Shown: positions 38,288-63,517 of the stretch, piece by piece
Layout: each line of letters starts with the position of its first letter
Numbering within the stretch: position 1 is the first letter of the stretch
Source: Octopus sinensis
Taxonomy: Eukaryota
Direction: 5' to 3'
NCBI RefSeq assembly: GCF_006345805.1
Contig: NW_021834790.1
Coordinates: 16,226-80,225, forward strand
Length of the DNA: 64,000 nt
The notes under the pieces: generated by a model
The model's database searches: none
What the model saw: the letters and a program-made list of their open reading frames with translations, nothing else
What the model was told of the DNA's origin: nothing
Translations under genes and position numbers: made by a program

Positions 38288-38329
<42 letters not shown>

Positions 38330-39572
38330 TAATTAAGGGCTAAAGAGGGTTATTCTAAAGCCAAATACACTGTTTATCCACTTATAATCCGCTTGTTACA
38401 GGAAAATTGAAACTGAAAACGGGCAACTAACTTTAGAAAATTTAAATTTCGTTATCTCTATATTGAATCAATTTCGGACTTAATCTTATAAAAAGATATA
38501 TTCTTCTTCAGTAGAAATTTCGATGGGATATAAATAAAATACTCACGTATGATCATGGAAAAAGCACAAGCTAAAAACATAACTACACTTGAGTACATCA
38601 TTTATATCTAAAAATAAAATTCTTTGGTCAGCCTCAGAAAACAACGTCCAGACCTTTCGCGCTACAATGTAATGTTACCAGTCCTCCTGTAGCAAGCATC
38701 GAGTTTACTACTAAGCAATATAGGATGAAGTCCCTTACTCTACAGCAAAGGAATTCATCAGGAAGCGTGGGCAGTATATTTAAAAACCGTTACGGTTTGC
38801 AATATACATCATAATTAAGGGCTAAGAGGGTTATTCTAAAGCCAAAATCATGTTTTATCCACTTATAATCCGCTTGTTACAGAAAATTGAAACTGAAAAC
38901 GGGCAACTACACCTTAGAAATTTAAATTTCGTTATCTCTATATGAATCAATTTCGGACTTAATCTTATAAAAAGATATATTCTTCTTCAGTAGAAATTCG
39001 ATGGATATAAATAAAATACTCACGTATGATCATGGAAAAAGCACAAGCTAAAAACATAACTACACTTGAGTACATCATTATATCTAAAAATAAAAATTCT
39101 TTGGTCAGCCTCAGAAAACAACGTCCAGACCTTTCGCCGCTACAAATTGTAATGGTTACCAGTCCTCCTGTAGCAAGCATCGAGTTTACTACTAAGCAAT
39201 ATAGGATGAAGTCCCTTACTCTACAGCAAAGGAATTCATCAGGAAGCGTGGGCAGTATATTTAAAAAAACCGTTACGGTTGCAATATATCATTATAATTA
39301 AGGGCTAAAGAGGGTTATTCTAAAGCCAAATACACTGTGTTATCCACTTATAATCCGCTTGTTACAGGAAAATTGAAACTGAAAACGGGCAACTAACCTT
39401 AGAAAATTTAAATTCGTTTATCTCTATATTGAATCAATTTCGGACTTAATCTATAAAAAGATATATTCCTTCTTCAGTAGAATTTCGATGGGATATAAAT
39501 AAAATACTCACGTATGATCATGGAAAAAGCACAAGCTAAAAACATAACTACACTGAGACATCATTATATCTC
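38330..39572 (-). repeat. ~484-bp tandem repeat (about 2.5 units), each unit with a hammerhead motif; retrozyme/PLE pLTR-like
   Basis: TAATTAAGGGCT recurs at ~38330, 38812 and 39296. (TA)n flanks both sides. Confidence 0.85.
38455..38517 (-). ncRNA. Type I hammerhead ribozyme motif (repeated at 38935-38996 and 39421-39483)
   Basis: Minus strand: TTTCTA-CTGAAGAA-(G)GA..ATCTT/AAGAT..TCC-GAAA-TTGA T TCAA-TA^-TAGAGA. Stem I has 6 bp and stem III is palindromic. Confidence 0.6.
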
Positions 39573-39580
39573 AATATATA

Positions 39581-52039: not shown

Positions 52040-52077
52040 CCTTTATATTTCAGGCCTAAAGGCCCCTCTTCAGAAGA
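52040..52077 (-). ncRNA. Minimal type I hammerhead ribozyme motif
   Basis: Minus strand: TCTT-CTGAAGA-G-GGGCC TTTA GGCCT-GAAA-TA-TA^-AAGG, inside a ~170-bp insert between microsatellites. Confidence 0.6.
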
Positions 52078-56988: not shown

Positions 56989-57026
<38 letters not shown>

Positions 57027-57248
57027 GAAATATTAAAATAACTAAGTCTCTCTAAAAGAGAACAGCGGCAGCGTTCCCGGAAAATAATAGTTATCGCCAT
57101 ACTAATGGCATTCTTATAAAAATAAGAAAAAACTGCCCGCTTATTAGCTCCATGAGGCCATCGCCTTAAGTTAGCTATTTGATACACAAACTGTATCCAT
57201 ATAACCTTCGAACAAGGAGGTCAGTCGCTCCACACTACTTGACCGGCA

Positions 57249-57290
57249 GCTACAGACGCGTTTCGGAGTATTGCCCCTTTTCAATGCAGC
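57249..57290 (-). ncRNA. Minimal type I hammerhead ribozyme, U3-A8 core variant
   Basis: Minus strand: GCTGCA-TTGAAAA-GGGG CAATA CTCC-GAAA-CGCG-TC^-TGTAGC. Stem I has 6 bp, stem II 4 bp, stem III is palindromic and the site is GUC. Confidence 0.7.
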
Positions 57291-57551
57291 GTAGCCAGCC
57301 AGTAGGTGTCGCTTCCTAAATCTTTATTATGATTATAAAAATCTTACAGAGATAGTACATTACAATACAAAACATAATACAAAAAGTTTACGTTGTTCGT
57401 TTGATATTTACATATGTTGATTATTGATTATGATACTAGACTTTACTTTTCTCCTTTTTTTTTTTTTTAAATTAAAATGATTTTGGCCAGCTAGGTAATC
57501 ACAGTCAGGATTCTTACCCGACAGCCTAAGAGCCAGAGACTATTTCTCCCT

Positions 57552-60500
57552 TCATGATGACCAAGCAGGGTTACTCACACCCACCTTTTTTATCACATCC
57601 TTCCATCGATTCACATACTTTTTCTGTGTCAGGTTCCTCTTCTCTAAATCCATCTTGCTCTTTAGATGGTATCTGAAGTATTTTAACATACCATATCCAG
57701 AGACAAAGGTCCTGACACCAAACCTTCCAATCTAGTTCTCCACACACACTCTTTCAGTACTGCCACCGTACAGTGAAAACAAGCCTCACCTTCCTTTGAG
57801 AGTCCAGCTGGCGGTATCATCTTTATATAGAACCAGCCGATAGCTGTACTCGTCCCAGATGCGACAACACGTGTTCTACGTAACTTATTAAGCCTGACAG
57901 CTCCTGACAATGTACAAAAGCGTGCTGGACGGTTTCATCGTCCAACCCACATCTTGGACATGTCGGTGGCACTGACATTCCATGCCTATATAACTTATCG
58001 CGAACAGGTAGAGCATTCCTATAGCACTGCCAAGTCAGGGATTTTTGGTAATTGTCCAAATACCCCGGCTTGAAAGTCTTCTTAAACAGGTCGGATAGTT
58101 GATCCTCATCGAACCCCAGAGCCCCTCTTAGGACGTCGTCATTTTTTGCCTCTACCATCCTTCTATAAAATGTCGAGGTGGTATTCCCGCAGCCGGCTTT
58201 GCCTATCTTGTGGATCAGCCAGAGTGCCTGTCGGCACTCTTTCTGCCATAAAGTCAGGTTCCGTCTTTTAATGAAACCGGGTTTAAATCTCTCCATAGAG
58301 TCCGGTTGCGGGAAGAAGATCTGCCAGCGGACTCCACACCTTATCACCTTCCAGGTGAAACCAGAGATGTCTCAGTCTCAGCGCATGCCTGCGCATCATT
58401 AACCAAGGCATCCCCAGCCCACCCTTTAGTGGTCCTGGCAACACACGGAGCGCCTTACAAGTGGCTTTCCTCCCTTCCACAAAAAGCGGAAAAGGAGTCG
58501 ATCCAACTTGCTTAGCCACAAATCGGGGCAAGGCACGACAGTCAGGCGATAGGTGATTACAGATGCTATAAACACCTGTACCACCTCCGCCCTCCCTTTC
58601 AAGGAAAGATGCCTTCCGGACCACTCCCAAACTATGGCTTCTACCTTGGTCACTACCTCGCTCCAATTTTTCTCCGTCTGGGAGTCTGAACCAAACCAAA
58701 CTCCAAGCAATTTAACAGGACCATCTGTCCAGTGTCCAACAACACTGGACGATATCGGCTTGTTCCTCCAGGTGCCGAGGCGCAAACCAGTGGACTTGTC
58801 CTTGTTAACTTTTGCCCCAGCCACCGCTTCGTATCTTCGGAGAGCACCTTCTACACGAGTTAGTTGTGCTTCGTTGGACACGATGAAGGTGACGTCATCC
58901 GCATACGCAGAAACAGACTTACCGCATCCGATTTCATTAGGATTGCATCTCACCGTCTCCAACTTCCGCAGCAATGGCTCAAGAGCCAAAACGTACAGGA
59001 GAGGGGACAAGGGACATCCTTGACGAACTGAACGCTTAATCGAAAACGGTTCCGTTAAGTAACCGTTTATCTGGACTGTGGACTTGATACCGCTGTACAT
59101 AGCTGATATCCACCCGCGAAAGTCAGGACCTAGCCCAGCCGCTTCGAGAACCGTCGCCAGGTACTGATGATCTACCCTATCAAATGCTTTACTTTGGTCT
59201 AAATGGACCAATGCCCCTCCTTTGCCGGCTAATTGCCCAACCCTGTCTATAGTGTAGCGTAGAAGGTGAAGATTATCTTCGATCGACCTGCCTGGGATTG
59301 CACATGTCTGTGCCTTTCCGACAAGTTTTTCCATGACGACCTTCAACCTTTCTGCTAACACCTTGGCCAAAATCTTTAACTCTACATTAAGTAGAGTTAT
59401 GGGCCTATAATTACTAATATTATCCCCCTTGCTCGGGTCTTTCTGGATCAGCGTCACAACTCCCCGGCTCACAGAACTGGGAATCCTCCCATTCTGTTGC
59501 CAGTTTGCGTAGACGCTTGCCAGTATGTCCCCGAACAAGTCCGGCATACAACAATAAAACTCATAGGGCAGACCATCCAGTCCCGGCGACTTTTCCCGGG
59601 CGCATTCAGCCAAACCCCTCTTACCTCCGCGGGAGTAATCGGTCCTTCACAGCGTTCCGCTCTGCTTGGCGAGAGCCGAGGCCCACCAGCTAGGAAGTTC
59701 TGTAAGTCCTCCCCTCGCTCGAGTGGATCGCCCTCCCCAAACAACCGAGCGAAATGCTGTTGAAAGACCTTCTGTATCTCCTCCTGTCCATAGATTTTGC
59801 GTCCCTGTTCGTCAGTTAAAGACTTAATAGAGGACTTTTTGCCCTTCTGACTCTCCACACGACGTGCCCATCCGGCAACATTAATACCTTCTCGTTTCAC
59901 TGCACGTAGCTTAGCTCTGACTCTACATCCTTCATGCTTGGCATTGAGGTGACGGTACAAGATCGTTCTCTCTGCTAACACTCTAGATGCACAGCCAGAT
60001 CCCATTGCCTCGTCTAAGTTCTTAACTAAATCGCCCTCTATTCTAGTCCTATCTAAACTTAGCTGGTTGCTAAATCTAATGGACTCCAAACGGATGGCTC
60101 TTTTGAGGCGATCCACCATCTATTATTAATGATGGTTCCACATAATGCCCTCTGGACTAATTCCATAATCCGGTTACGGAAAGCTTCACAAGCCAAAATA
60201 GACTTGTTCATTTTCCAGTATCCGGGTCCCTGTCTATGGCATTTATCTACATGTACCTCACACGTCACTAATTTGTGATCCGTGTAAGGCACAATACAAA
60301 TTGTGGACAGCTAATGCTATTCCTATCTCGTTCTTTAACAAATACCCTATCTATATACGATCTGCGTGAGCCGTCATTGTTACTCCACGTCCACTGTGGA
60401 ATGCTCGGCTCATCCATTCGAAACCGATCTACTAGATTAAAGCTCGTCAGTAGACCCTTAAGGCAAGGATTCCCCCTTCTATCAGACGAGCCCACACTAT

Positions 60501-60941
60501 CTATCCGCGCATCGATGATAGTGTTGAAATCCCCTACCAATACTACCGTTTTAGACGTCACTAGAAAGTGCTCCAAGTTCCGATAAAACCAGTCTGCCTA
60601 CCCTCATTAGGAGCATAAACAGCTACCAACCTGAAGGACTGCTTACTTACGTGAGTTACATCGAGGACAACCAGCCTACCTTCTGGGTCCATAAAGACAG
60701 TACTTACCTGTAAGTCCAAGTTCTTCCTGATAAGGACTGCCACGCCTGCACTTCCTCCTCGGCTAGGAGAAATAAATTTCTCGTAACCATTGAGAAGATG
60801 CGAGAACGCTTGGGTTCCTCTCATCTTGGACTCGGTGACAATGGCTACATCTATTCTGTGTGTCCTGAGGTCGTCCAGCAAGCAAGCCTGTTTCCATTTC
60901 GACCCCATTCCACGCACATTTATACAGCCCAACTTAATCAT
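57552..60941 (-). CDS. ORF2: apurinic-like endonuclease, reverse transcriptase and C-terminal zinc finger (broken by about 8 frameshifts in this sequence)
   Basis: INVRG, VYAPN, GDFN, IDRVF and TDHK (APE). KSPGLDGLPYEFY, YRPITLLN, KAFDRVDH, RQGCPLSPLLY and YADD (RT). GGLG and CPRC...ETVQHAFVHC (zinc finger). Confidence 0.9.
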
Positions 60942-60961
60942 CGATGAATGAAGAAAGTTTG

Positions 60962-62443
60962 TTACTTACGGTTGTGAGAGGGAGCATGGCAGCTTTTGTC
61001 TGCCTGCTTCCCCACACTCTCCGTTGTTGCTGGGCATTTAACCGGCGTTGCCACCGGGCTCTGGGATGGAGTGGCTGCCGGGCTAATATTCAATTTTCCA
61101 GCTATCACCTCTTGTGTGACATCTTTAATCAGGTTGTCCCTCACGTGTAGTTGGAAGAGTCTCTCCTTCCATTCCTCCTCTCCAACCTTCGCATACCTCC
61201 AATCCGGGTTTTTTTCCGATGATTTGAAACATTTTATGTTTGGTTTCGCCTTTATGTACCAAACTACTCTCTCGTTTTTTGTGTTATAAGCAATGCACCT
61301 ATCGGTTTTTTTGAATCCTTTTAAAGTTGGGGGCTGGGGTTTAATGAAATGCTGGCCTACAAAGTAGTGCCAGCGGGGTGGGATTGGATAATTTTTTTGT
61401 GTTGTCTCTGCGTTTGTTTTCTTTTTGTTTGGGGTGGGGAGTCCGGGGTATTGGATTTCTTCCTTTGTTTGGTTACAGTCGTATATTCCATTACTTCCAG
61501 TTCTTTTCCATTTGATAAATTATTTTCCACCTCGTTTTCGTTTTCGCTTTGTTTTCCATTCATTTTCTTTTCCTCCTTTTGACTTTCATTTTGCTTTTTC
61601 CGGGTATTCTCTTTTGTTGTTGCTGTGATGTCTGCTTTGTTCTCCACAGCGGTTTGAATGGGGGCATTAACGGGTTTTTTCTTTTTGCACTCTGAGCGGA
61701 CGTGACCCTTCTGCCCACATTTGAAACATCTGGGCCTACGTCCCTCAACCGATACCCGCGCAGTGTGTCCATCCCCCACGAAGACCCTGTCTGGCAAACT
61801 CTCCAGCGTTGCATTGTCAGCTTGAACGATCATTTCAAGCTGCTGACCTTTCCAAAATTTTGCCTCTTTCATCCTCATGTTTAAAATGTTTAATTTCTCT
61901 TCTACGTCGAATACGACCGCTGTTGCTGCCCACATTACATCGTAACCTGTTGGTATATCCTCTATTGTTATCTTAGCTGTTCTGCGCCCTAAGTACGTGG
62001 GCAGCAACAGGATGTCTGCACTCTTCAACGTTTGAGTTGAAATTTCCTTCGCTATGCTAGCCGACTCGAAATGCGCTTCAATAGTAGCGCTTCTCACTCC
62101 TCGGCCAACATAGCGAACCTTGTTCCAAATTGGTGCCATGCACCGTTCTACCAATTCATTTCTTACATCTGCAATCTTTTTTTCCTTAATATTATATACC
62201 TTATAAATTACCGTCTTCTCACGGATTGCTTGTAAGGTGTCAGGGGGCGGTATTATTCTCGTTTCTTCTCCATTCCTTTGTATGAACTTTCTGAACTTGA
62301 AGAGATCCTCCATTGTTACTTCCCAGTTCTATAACATTGCCTCCAACGGCTTCCGAAAAACTTTGTTTCTCCTTTGTATCCTTTTGCTTTATAACTTCTC
62401 CCATCTCGGGAAAATCAGAATTTGACGTTAAGTCAAGATCCAT
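60962..62443 (-). CDS. ORF1: gag-like nucleic-acid-binding protein with a CCHC zinc knuckle (2 frameshifts)
   Basis: CFKCGQKGHVRSEC. Three frame-shifted segments join from MDLDL... (62443) to ...SHNRK* (60962), ending 20 bp before the ORF2 start. Confidence 0.8.
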
Positions 62444-62968
62444 AATAAAATGCAAGTGACTTGTCACAAGAGACAAGATAAAAATTAAATCCACACTGAA
62501 TTAAAGTTCATATATAAAAAGAAATTTTCTACCCCGAAGGGCGAAAATTACTTTGTTTCACAAGTTAATACTCCAAAAATTGTACGTGTAAATCCAGAAC
62601 AGAACGAACTAACATAACAGCTTACAGCGTAAAATAATCCGACGTAATCCAAGGAAAATCAGTAGGTGTCGCTTCCGACAATCTCTGTTCGATGGTTTTA
62701 TTTACCTAGTTTCGGTGGAATACATCCACTTGTTTTCAATAATAGAATATTAAAATAACTAAGTCTCTCTAAAAGAGAACAGCGGCAGCGTTCCGGAAAA
62801 TAATAGTTATCGCCATACTAATATGGCATTCTTATAAAATAAAGAAAAAAGCTGCCCGCTTATTAGCTCCATGAGGCCATCGCCTTAAGTTAGCTATTTG
62901 ATACACAAACTGTATCCATATAACCTTCGAACAAGGGAGGTCAGTCGCTCCACACTACTTGACCGGCA

Positions 62969-63011
62969 GCTACAGACGCGTTTTCGGAGTATTGCCCCTT
63001 TTCAATGCAGC
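62969..63011 (-). ncRNA. Hammerhead motif, unit 2 copy
   Basis: Same as 57249-57290 with one extra A in the GAAA run. Confidence 0.6.
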
Positions 63012-63129
63012 GTAGCCAGCCAGTAGGTGTCGCTTCCGACAATCTCTGTTCGATGGTTTTATTTACCTAGTTTCGGTAAATAAAACCATCGAACAGAGTT
63101 GTCGGAAGCGAACACCTACTGCTGGCTAC

Positions 63130-63170
63130 GCTGCATTGAAAGGGGCAATACTAAGAAACGCGTCTGTACT
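63130..63170 (+). ncRNA. Hammerhead motif in the inverted copy, damaged
   Basis: GCTGCA-TTGAAA-GGGGCAATACTAA-GAAACGCGTC-TGTAC; stem II is disrupted. Confidence 0.45.
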
Positions 63171-63517
63171 GCCGGTCAAGTAGTGGGGAGCGACTGACCT
63201 CCCTTTTCGAAGGTTATATGGATACAGTTTGTGTACAAATAGCTAACTTAGGCGATGGCCTCATGGAGCTAATAAGCGGGCAGCTTTTTTTCTTATTTTA
63301 TAAGAAATGCCATATTAGTATGGCGATAACTATTATATTATATATATATATATATATGATTTGTTTTACGCATGTAGTATTTATTGATCTCCTCTCTATC
63401 AATGTGTTGTTTGGCATAATGTTTTGTATGTATGTATACAATATATATATATGTCCATGTTATGCATGTACTTATTTACATATATGTATGTATGCATGTA
63501 TATATATATGTATGTAT

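Follow-up and report, generated by a model that had tools for sequence, protein, structure and literature searches.

A poly(A) signal at the end of a Tx1-like LINE in Octopus sinensis may account for its tail-less insertion into a hammerhead-bearing repeat

Introduction

How does a retrotransposon that ends without a poly(A) tail come to be joined to its target at one exact base? The question is raised by a stretch of 64,000 nucleotides (nt) of Octopus sinensis DNA (NCBI RefSeq assembly GCF_006345805.1, contig NW_021834790.1, positions 16,226 to 80,225 of the forward strand; hereafter the window, whose own numbering is used throughout). Its minus strand carries a full-length Tx1-like long interspersed nuclear element (LINE; 62659-57317, 5343 nt) lying inside a non-coding repeat, the host, that bears hammerhead ribozymes. 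The 3' end of the LINE, AATAAAGATTTA, abuts a 17-nt target site duplication (TSD) with no A-tail between them. An original prediction, made from the window sequence alone, had noted this junction and proposed that hammerheads on the same strand could release the LINE from read-through transcripts of a repeat array, as an RNA of about 5.7 kb with target sequence at its 3' end. The strand of the LINE, its tail-less end, the two predicted GUC cuts (57255/57254, 62 nt past the 3' end, and 62975/62974, 315 nt before the 5' end) and the RNA length, which we compute as 5720 nt, all hold good.

The locus can be framed as a contest between poly(A) machinery cutting inside the TSD and a borrowed ribozyme cutting 46-52 nt further on. 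If the first route is correct, precise, tail-less and full-length insertion in this lineage would be explained without a ribozyme, which bears on the design of LINE-based insertion tools. If the second is correct, the LINE outsources both of its RNA ends to its host.

A poly(A) signal beside the tail-less end

Just one sense-strand AATAAA occurs in the 5343 nt of the LINE, 6 nt from its end, and TGTA, a predicted upstream poly(A) element, is found six times in the last 100 nt compared with 0.4 times per 100 nt elsewhere in the element. In mammals, cleavage falls 10-30 nt after AATAAA, often after a CA (PMC4421977). In the window this interval would cover 57313-57293, with a predicted cleavage site at a CA (57308-57307) within the 3' TSD, 52 nt before the hammerhead cut. 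The primer strand at the target ends in CGCTTCC and offers no T-tract, so a poly(A) tail cannot pair there while target bases on the RNA can. Given this and the uniform tail-less junction described below, the 3' end of the template RNA probably includes target bases, and that part of the original prediction survives. We modestly favour the following explanation: cleavage directed by the LINE's own poly(A) signal would fall some 10 nt into the TSD, and copying would start upstream of the tail.

In outline, RNA polymerase II would transcribe the LINE, starting either in its own 5' untranslated region (UTR) or at a host promoter that lies directly before the junction, and cleavage and polyadenylation would yield a capped mRNA ending in 10 target bases and an A-tail. 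The product of the second open reading frame (ORF2) would nick a new host unit at the same base, the freed primer strand would anneal to the target bases of the RNA, and reverse transcription would begin at the last base of the LINE, leaving the tail uncopied. The host hammerheads would at most trim read-through RNA as a side route. They are probably bystanders that belong to the host, not borrowed cutters, because the poly(A) signal would cut inside the TSD about 50 nt earlier and because relatives that lack hammerheads are also tail-less.

Target bases on the template have precedents in other site-specific elements. The efficiency of R2Ol rose from 12% to 96-98% when well-placed target bases were present on the RNA (PMC6530143), and for R1Bm an accurate start reportedly depends on downstream target sequence in the RNA (cited in PMC7265360 and PMC6530143). 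Like the present element, R1Bm encodes an apurinic/apyrimidinic (AP) endonuclease; it belongs to the R1 clade and inserts in 28S rDNA, whereas cleavage at a terminal poly(A) signal would supply the target bases here.

Two further features of the junction region can be mentioned. An A-run lies inside the 3' UTR at 57455-57467, about 140 nt before the end; mispriming of oligo-dT on it could be mistaken for a poly(A) site in rapid amplification of cDNA ends. The last bases of the LINE (57317-57323) and the host bases just upstream of the TSD (62677-62684) have AGATT in common, perhaps reflecting captured target.

The same junction in other copies

Other copies were sought in 24 sequencing runs, all of them assembled contigs and none on record as RNA, of which five were compared with the window. 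Copy evidence was read from contig depth bins rather than individual records, and 76% of run X3 was covered. In X3, a 3' UTR contig (depth 914.5) stops at 57318, while contigs with a combined depth of 648 (71% of the 3'-end depth) start at 57347 and cross the junction with no other letter, indel or loose end; these are taken to reach the host, very short contigs apparently having been left unaligned. All seven partly aligned X3 contigs have their loose ends away from the junction. For X5, junction-covering contigs amount to approximately 2440 against a 3'-end depth of 2093, with no loose end at the junction among the 15 of 21 loose-end rows listed. In X1, one record shows the identical 3' junction within a host allele distinguished from that of the window at 57298, and a second record reaches the 5' junction. 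Empty target sites were present in four of four runs. We conclude that the LINE belongs to a young family whose insertions are specific to a single base of an abundant repeat.

Most copies look full length, because contig depth at the 5' end resembles that at the 3' end (1037 and 914 in X3, 1902 and 2093 in X5). Read loosely, since depth sums are not copy numbers, depths of about 900-2100 for the LINE, about 30-70 for rare contigs and 1e5-9e5 for the host bins give a hint of LINE copies in the tens and host units in the thousands. In X1 the repeat-to-LINE depth ratio is far below that of X3 and X5 and depth rises from 5' to 3', unlike plain genomic DNA; we draw nothing about RNA from this. No joints to the opposite strand were listed in the runs. 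Orientation bias had been put forward as a test of the ribozyme model; it does not discriminate, because in target-primed reverse transcription a site-specific nick at an asymmetric target fixes the orientation of insertion, so a shared orientation says nothing about ribozyme use.

Tail-less ends in relatives without hammerheads

The nearest relatives with DNA context have 51-53% identity in the reverse transcriptase (RT), and 39 of their 46 loci fall in one bin that is filed as bacterial (G001), although we take its contigs for animal host DNA. A quick tree of 40 rows places these relatives with the window RT at an SH-aLRT support value of 100. Many of the G001 contigs (L081-L118, L123, L127-L131) consist of head-to-tail arrays of 6.4-6.9-kb LINEs with intact ORFs. 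Their 3' junctions yielded 34 distinct strings (from 44 readings of overlapping loci); TGTA precedes AATAAA in 33 of these, and none has more than four A in the 30 nt past AATAAA. At two array ends, unrelated flank begins about 12 nt past AATAAA. Across 44 loci (396 kb) there was no match to our hammerhead descriptor, defined as the catalytic core with a helix I of at least 5 bp and a helix II of at least 4 bp. These hammerhead-free relatives end tail-less after TGTA-AATAAA, so no ribozyme is required for an end of this kind.

Some related observations concern the sites themselves. The LINE in the window is inserted where the host's own 3' cleavage could fall, the host having a TGTA and AATAAA 20 nt before the target site, and the G001 relatives are likewise stacked directly behind an AATAAA. 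One G001 subfamily has the 5' motif TTGGATTACG in common with the window LINE.

Several points weigh against cleavage at the poly(A) signal as the source of the junction. Both X1 junction records extend 30 letters into the host, one below our bridging bar of 31, and the X1 3' record passes the predicted CA without an A-run, which would be read-through if X1 is RNA. The contig break at 57318/57317 in X3 implies that some copies have another letter there, and 29% of the 3'-end depth of that run is unaccounted for. Among the relatives, one period holds five sense AATAAA, so that uniqueness of the signal is not clade-wide; the control arrays come from one contaminated bin with overlapping loci and approximate ends; and more distant relatives inserted in U2 small nuclear RNA (snRNA) genes (37-40% identity; L002, L030) have short A-runs. 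The poly(A) rules we applied are mammalian, and host sequence past the predicted site contains no clear U/GU-rich downstream element, as is also the case for approximately 20% of human poly(A) sites (PMC4421977).

Could the junction form without pairing?

The best-surviving alternative, which we nonetheless consider unlikely, is that no pairing is involved: ORF2 would recognise a structure in the 3' UTR and copy from a fixed base, and both the tail and the hammerheads would be irrelevant to the junction. The RT of SART1Bm does recognise its 3' UTR and is able to initiate at internal positions (PMC7265360), and the 3' ends of the relatives are conserved up to AATAAA and variable beyond it. However, precise starts by SART1Bm were reduced without a tail and restored by target-like bases (PMC7265360), R2Ol responded to target bases at its RNA end as described above (PMC6530143), and an unpaired fixed start would be expected to leave more variety at the junction than the runs show.

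Host hammerheads as possible makers of RNA ends

Slightly less probable again is the route of the original prediction. On this view the two host hammerheads would cleave read-through RNA, either by pairing with each other as a dimer over 5.7 kb or by working in trans with host RNA. The resulting 5720-nt RNA, carrying 315 nt of target at its 5' end and 62 nt at its 3' end, would serve as template in linear form or after circularization by RtcB. Our descriptor matched the 64-kb window at 57284 and 63005 only, and none of 2000 shuffled units. The core (UUGAAAA / GAAA / GUC) is a U3-A8 covariant rather than CUGANGA, a variant reported for minimal Penelope hammerheads of Schistosoma (PMC4209133), and the motif is otherwise that of a canonical metazoan type I ribozyme, with a 6-bp helix I, a 4-bp helix II, GAAA, a palindromic CGCG loop and GUC. 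There is no CTGANGA near either site, and Rfam gave no hammerhead at gathering score or among the 20 matches up to E 10; its only hits were below-threshold miRNA-like hairpins caused by the fold-back and the microsatellites. The exact hammerhead pattern had no match in metagenome, genome or viral contigs.

Folding gave pair probabilities of 0.91-1.0 for helices I and II of the downstream copy. In the runs, one substitution alone reaches at least 10% across 57235-57316, a one-sided G-U to G-C change in helix II (depth 639256 of 702622 in X3 and 578872 of 628455 in X5; 91-92%), and no indel reaches 10% in the core. Both predicted hammerheads are well formed and carry the family-majority letters. 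The original prediction had placed every ribozyme on the minus strand; this is right for these two, while a third, damaged copy in the inverted arm of the host lies on the plus strand.

Several features count against their making the RNA ends. Helix III is one pair under a palindromic tetraloop, and an axolotl motif with this type of helix reached 6% cleavage in 1 h as a monomer and is active as a dimer (PMC7229834); by analogy, the host hammerheads would need a dimer. The dimer fold is favourable (-28.7 kcal/mol compared with -9.2 for a pair of closed monomers and -20.4 for a pair of open ones), and Penelope elements carry pairs of hammerheads about 3 kb apart (PMC4209133), but the only partner in cis is 5.7 kb away. 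When the inverted arm is co-transcribed, the predicted pairing of the upstream helices I and II falls from 0.79-0.92 to 0.0. The terminal poly(A) signal would act approximately 50 nt ahead of the downstream cut, and the tail-less, hammerhead-free relatives again count against the route.

At the 5' end, upstream target on the RNA gives uniform 5' junctions in R2 (PMC3774820), which fits the mostly full-length copies, although upstream target bases from a host promoter beside the junction would explain these as well. Self-cleavage can also drive cap-independent translation in viruses (PMC13725137). Against this, the 315-nt leader holds six ATG (6.2 expected by composition; the 216-nt 5' UTR of the LINE holds two, with 4.0 expected) and the host's own TGTA-AATAAA, and R2 cuts within about 36 nt of its 5' junction rather than 315 (PMC3774820). 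R2, which is also site-specific and in which target bases on the RNA make junctions precise, encodes a ribozyme like that of hepatitis delta virus that releases it from a 28S co-transcript (PMC3774820, PMC6530143). Here the ribozymes belong to the host and lie 315 and 62 nt away, neither an Rfam ribozyme nor a descriptor match was found inside the LINE (57317-62659), and the LINE has its own poly(A) signal. A joint between the end of the TSD and the base after the cut, as leader capture would leave, is absent from the window and not among the joints listed for the runs, a weak negative given that only 20 flanking letters are available in the latter.

A nearer candidate, the second hammerhead-like relic of table 1 (62739-62697) 43 nt upstream of the 5' junction, was rejected as an active cutter, as its helix I does not form and it gives no descriptor match. 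The fold-back centre of the host (63063-63077) is a small hairpin (ACC, 7-nt loop, GGT) at this second hammerhead-like relic, and host unit 2 stops just short of the core of the relic.

The LINE might instead be retrozyme cargo, a reading we regard as improbable: the hammerheads would pair across 5.7 kb and excise the 5720-nt RNA, which would close into a protein-coding circle, as RtcB does close retrozyme monomers (PMC7229834). Such a circle would be translated without a cap and would template precise, full-length insertion into new units. Least probable is that a single LINE insertion was multiplied with the host, itself mobile and inserted in Penelope style, by Penelope-type machinery or by duplication, which would suit the identical junction and equal 5' and 3' depths but sits poorly with the same junction in two host alleles (window and X1), with ORFs that appear intact in the runs, and with the usually strong 5' truncation of Penelope-type insertions (PMC8557442).

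The host repeat

The order of parts on the minus strand is (TA)n, inverted partial unit, host unit 1, the opening 57 nt of unit 2, the LINE, the remainder of unit 2 and (TA)n (table 1). The long read-through array on which the original prediction relied is missing: between the (TA)n tracts the host amounts to 1.85 units plus an inverted arm, that is, one full unit, one split unit and the arm. A partial tandem, an inverted 5' arm and a microsatellite target make up the insertion footprint described for Penelope-like elements (PMC8557442), and all three are present here. Because of this match, we read the host on its structure as a dispersed, non-coding insertion of Penelope or retrozyme type. 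Hammerheads within the repeat are a further likeness to Penelope-like elements (PMC8557442, PMC4209133), from which the host differs in having no Penelope-like ORF, as a non-autonomous derivative.

The 361-nt unit also falls in the 150-450-nt range of the tandem, non-coding units of metazoan non-LTR retrozymes, and two consecutive units bear a hammerhead. The small non-coding tandem unit and the type I hammerhead, with its 6-bp helix I, 4-bp helix II, one-pair helix III and palindromic tetraloop, are common to both (PMC7229834; bioRxiv 10.64898/2026.07.22.740005); the host stands apart in its U3-A8 core and in carrying a LINE.

With regard to promoters, CCACCGAAA lies 25 nt before ATCG in the window, and the same spacing is seen before U2 in L002. 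Newt satellite 2 is reportedly driven by an snRNA-type promoter.

Table 1. Features of the LINE and its host repeat in the window (AP, apurinic/apyrimidinic; ORF, open reading frame; RT, reverse transcriptase; TSD, target site duplication; UTR, untranslated region)
Feature	Position	Strand	Basis or remark
Host repeat unit 1, 361 nt, retrozyme-like, non-coding	62717..63077	-	
Host unit 2, 5' part up to the insertion	62660..62716	-	100% identity to first 57 nt of unit 1
3' remainder of host unit 2, with terminal (TA)n	57025..57316	-	96% identity to unit 1; flank
Inverted partial unit (fold-back arm), ending in (TA)n	63075..63339	+	94% identity over 273 nt; flank
Host's own TGTA and AATAAA	62697..62724	-	20 nt before TSD
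Tx1-like AP-endonuclease-type LINE, 5343 nt, full length	57317..62659	-	TSD boundaries, domains; single copy in window
ORF1, CCHC zinc knuckle, frameshifted in this assembly	60962..62443	-	PF00098 in 61357-62328; one-base insertions at 61360 and 61416 in other runs
ORF2: AP endonuclease, RT, zf-RVT; in pieces; stop position approximate	57552..60941	-	PF03372, PF00078, PF13966
5' copy of 17-nt TSD	62660..62676	-	Sequence
3' copy of 17-nt TSD	57300..57316	-	Sequence
AATAAA, only sense-strand one in the LINE	57323..57328	-	6 nt from element end
Six TGTA in U-rich 3' UTR end, predicted upstream poly(A) elements	57345..57412	-	
CA, predicted cleavage/polyadenylation site inside 3' TSD	57307..57308	-	16 nt after AATAAA; inferred
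Downstream type I hammerhead, U3-A8 core, predicted cut 57255/57254	57249..57290	-	Descriptor, folding, family-majority letters
Upstream type I hammerhead, cut predicted at 62975/62974; assembly has an additional A in GAAA	62969..63011	-	
Third, damaged hammerhead copy in inverted arm	63130..63170	+	No descriptor match
Second hammerhead-like relic (UUGAAAA, 5-bp hairpin, GAAA-CUAG-GUA), then host AATAAA	62697..62739	-	20 nt before TSD

The LINE and its class

A zinc-knuckle ORF1 and an ORF2 with AP endonuclease, RT and a C-terminal zinc domain are features of the Tx1 clade, as is a fixed target site with a TSD, seen here as the 17-nt duplication and the same junction in other runs. In a quick RT tree that contained no named Tx1 reference, the LINE fell in a set of 26 rows (SH-aLRT 86) with two U2-inserted Keno-like elements. 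The Tx1 label does not appear in the cluster names or the Atlas, and no viral relatives of the RT were present in the RT alignment. The N-terminal frame of ORF1, from the ATG at 62443, meets a stop after 68 codons. Because contigs of four other runs insert one base at the break points (57825, 58432, 59611, 60106, 60297, 60584, 61360 and 61416), the ORF1 and ORF2 frameshifts suggest errors in the window assembly, with which we also count the extra A of the upstream hammerhead; the ORFs appear intact in the other runs.

Families of the Tx1 clade that target transposons, microsatellites and U2 are known (PMC4494074, PMC4640811). With Xenopus Tx1 in Tx1D, crocodilian Tx1-Mar, Tx1-9_AMi and Keno in U2, the present LINE shares two ORFs, an AP endonuclease and RT, a fixed site in another multicopy element and a TSD (PMC4494074); it differs in being inserted in a non-coding repeat that bears hammerheads. 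Targeting of other mobile elements by Tx1-type LINEs is known, while a hammerhead retrozyme as the target appears new: no published example was found in the literature searched, most subscription papers, the supplements of PMC4494074 and Repbase lying outside that search.

Sister subfamilies with 85-92% identity in ORF2 (window 57556-60870) occur in the runs, one of them with a different 3' UTR straight after the stop, and these may have other targets. Metagenome contigs also contain U2 snRNA genes broken by Keno-like AP-endonuclease LINEs (L001:554-604, L002:701-751 and L030:3490-3672).

Other repeats in the window

An isolated, minimal hammerhead-like motif of Penelope type, with a CUGAAGA core and a 6-bp helix II, is found at 52073 on the minus strand. 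At 38322-39578, 2.6 units of a 481-nt tandem repeat lie between (AT)n tracts, with a loose hammerhead-like motif near 39477 on the minus strand; this repeat is probably a second non-coding insertion of Penelope type.

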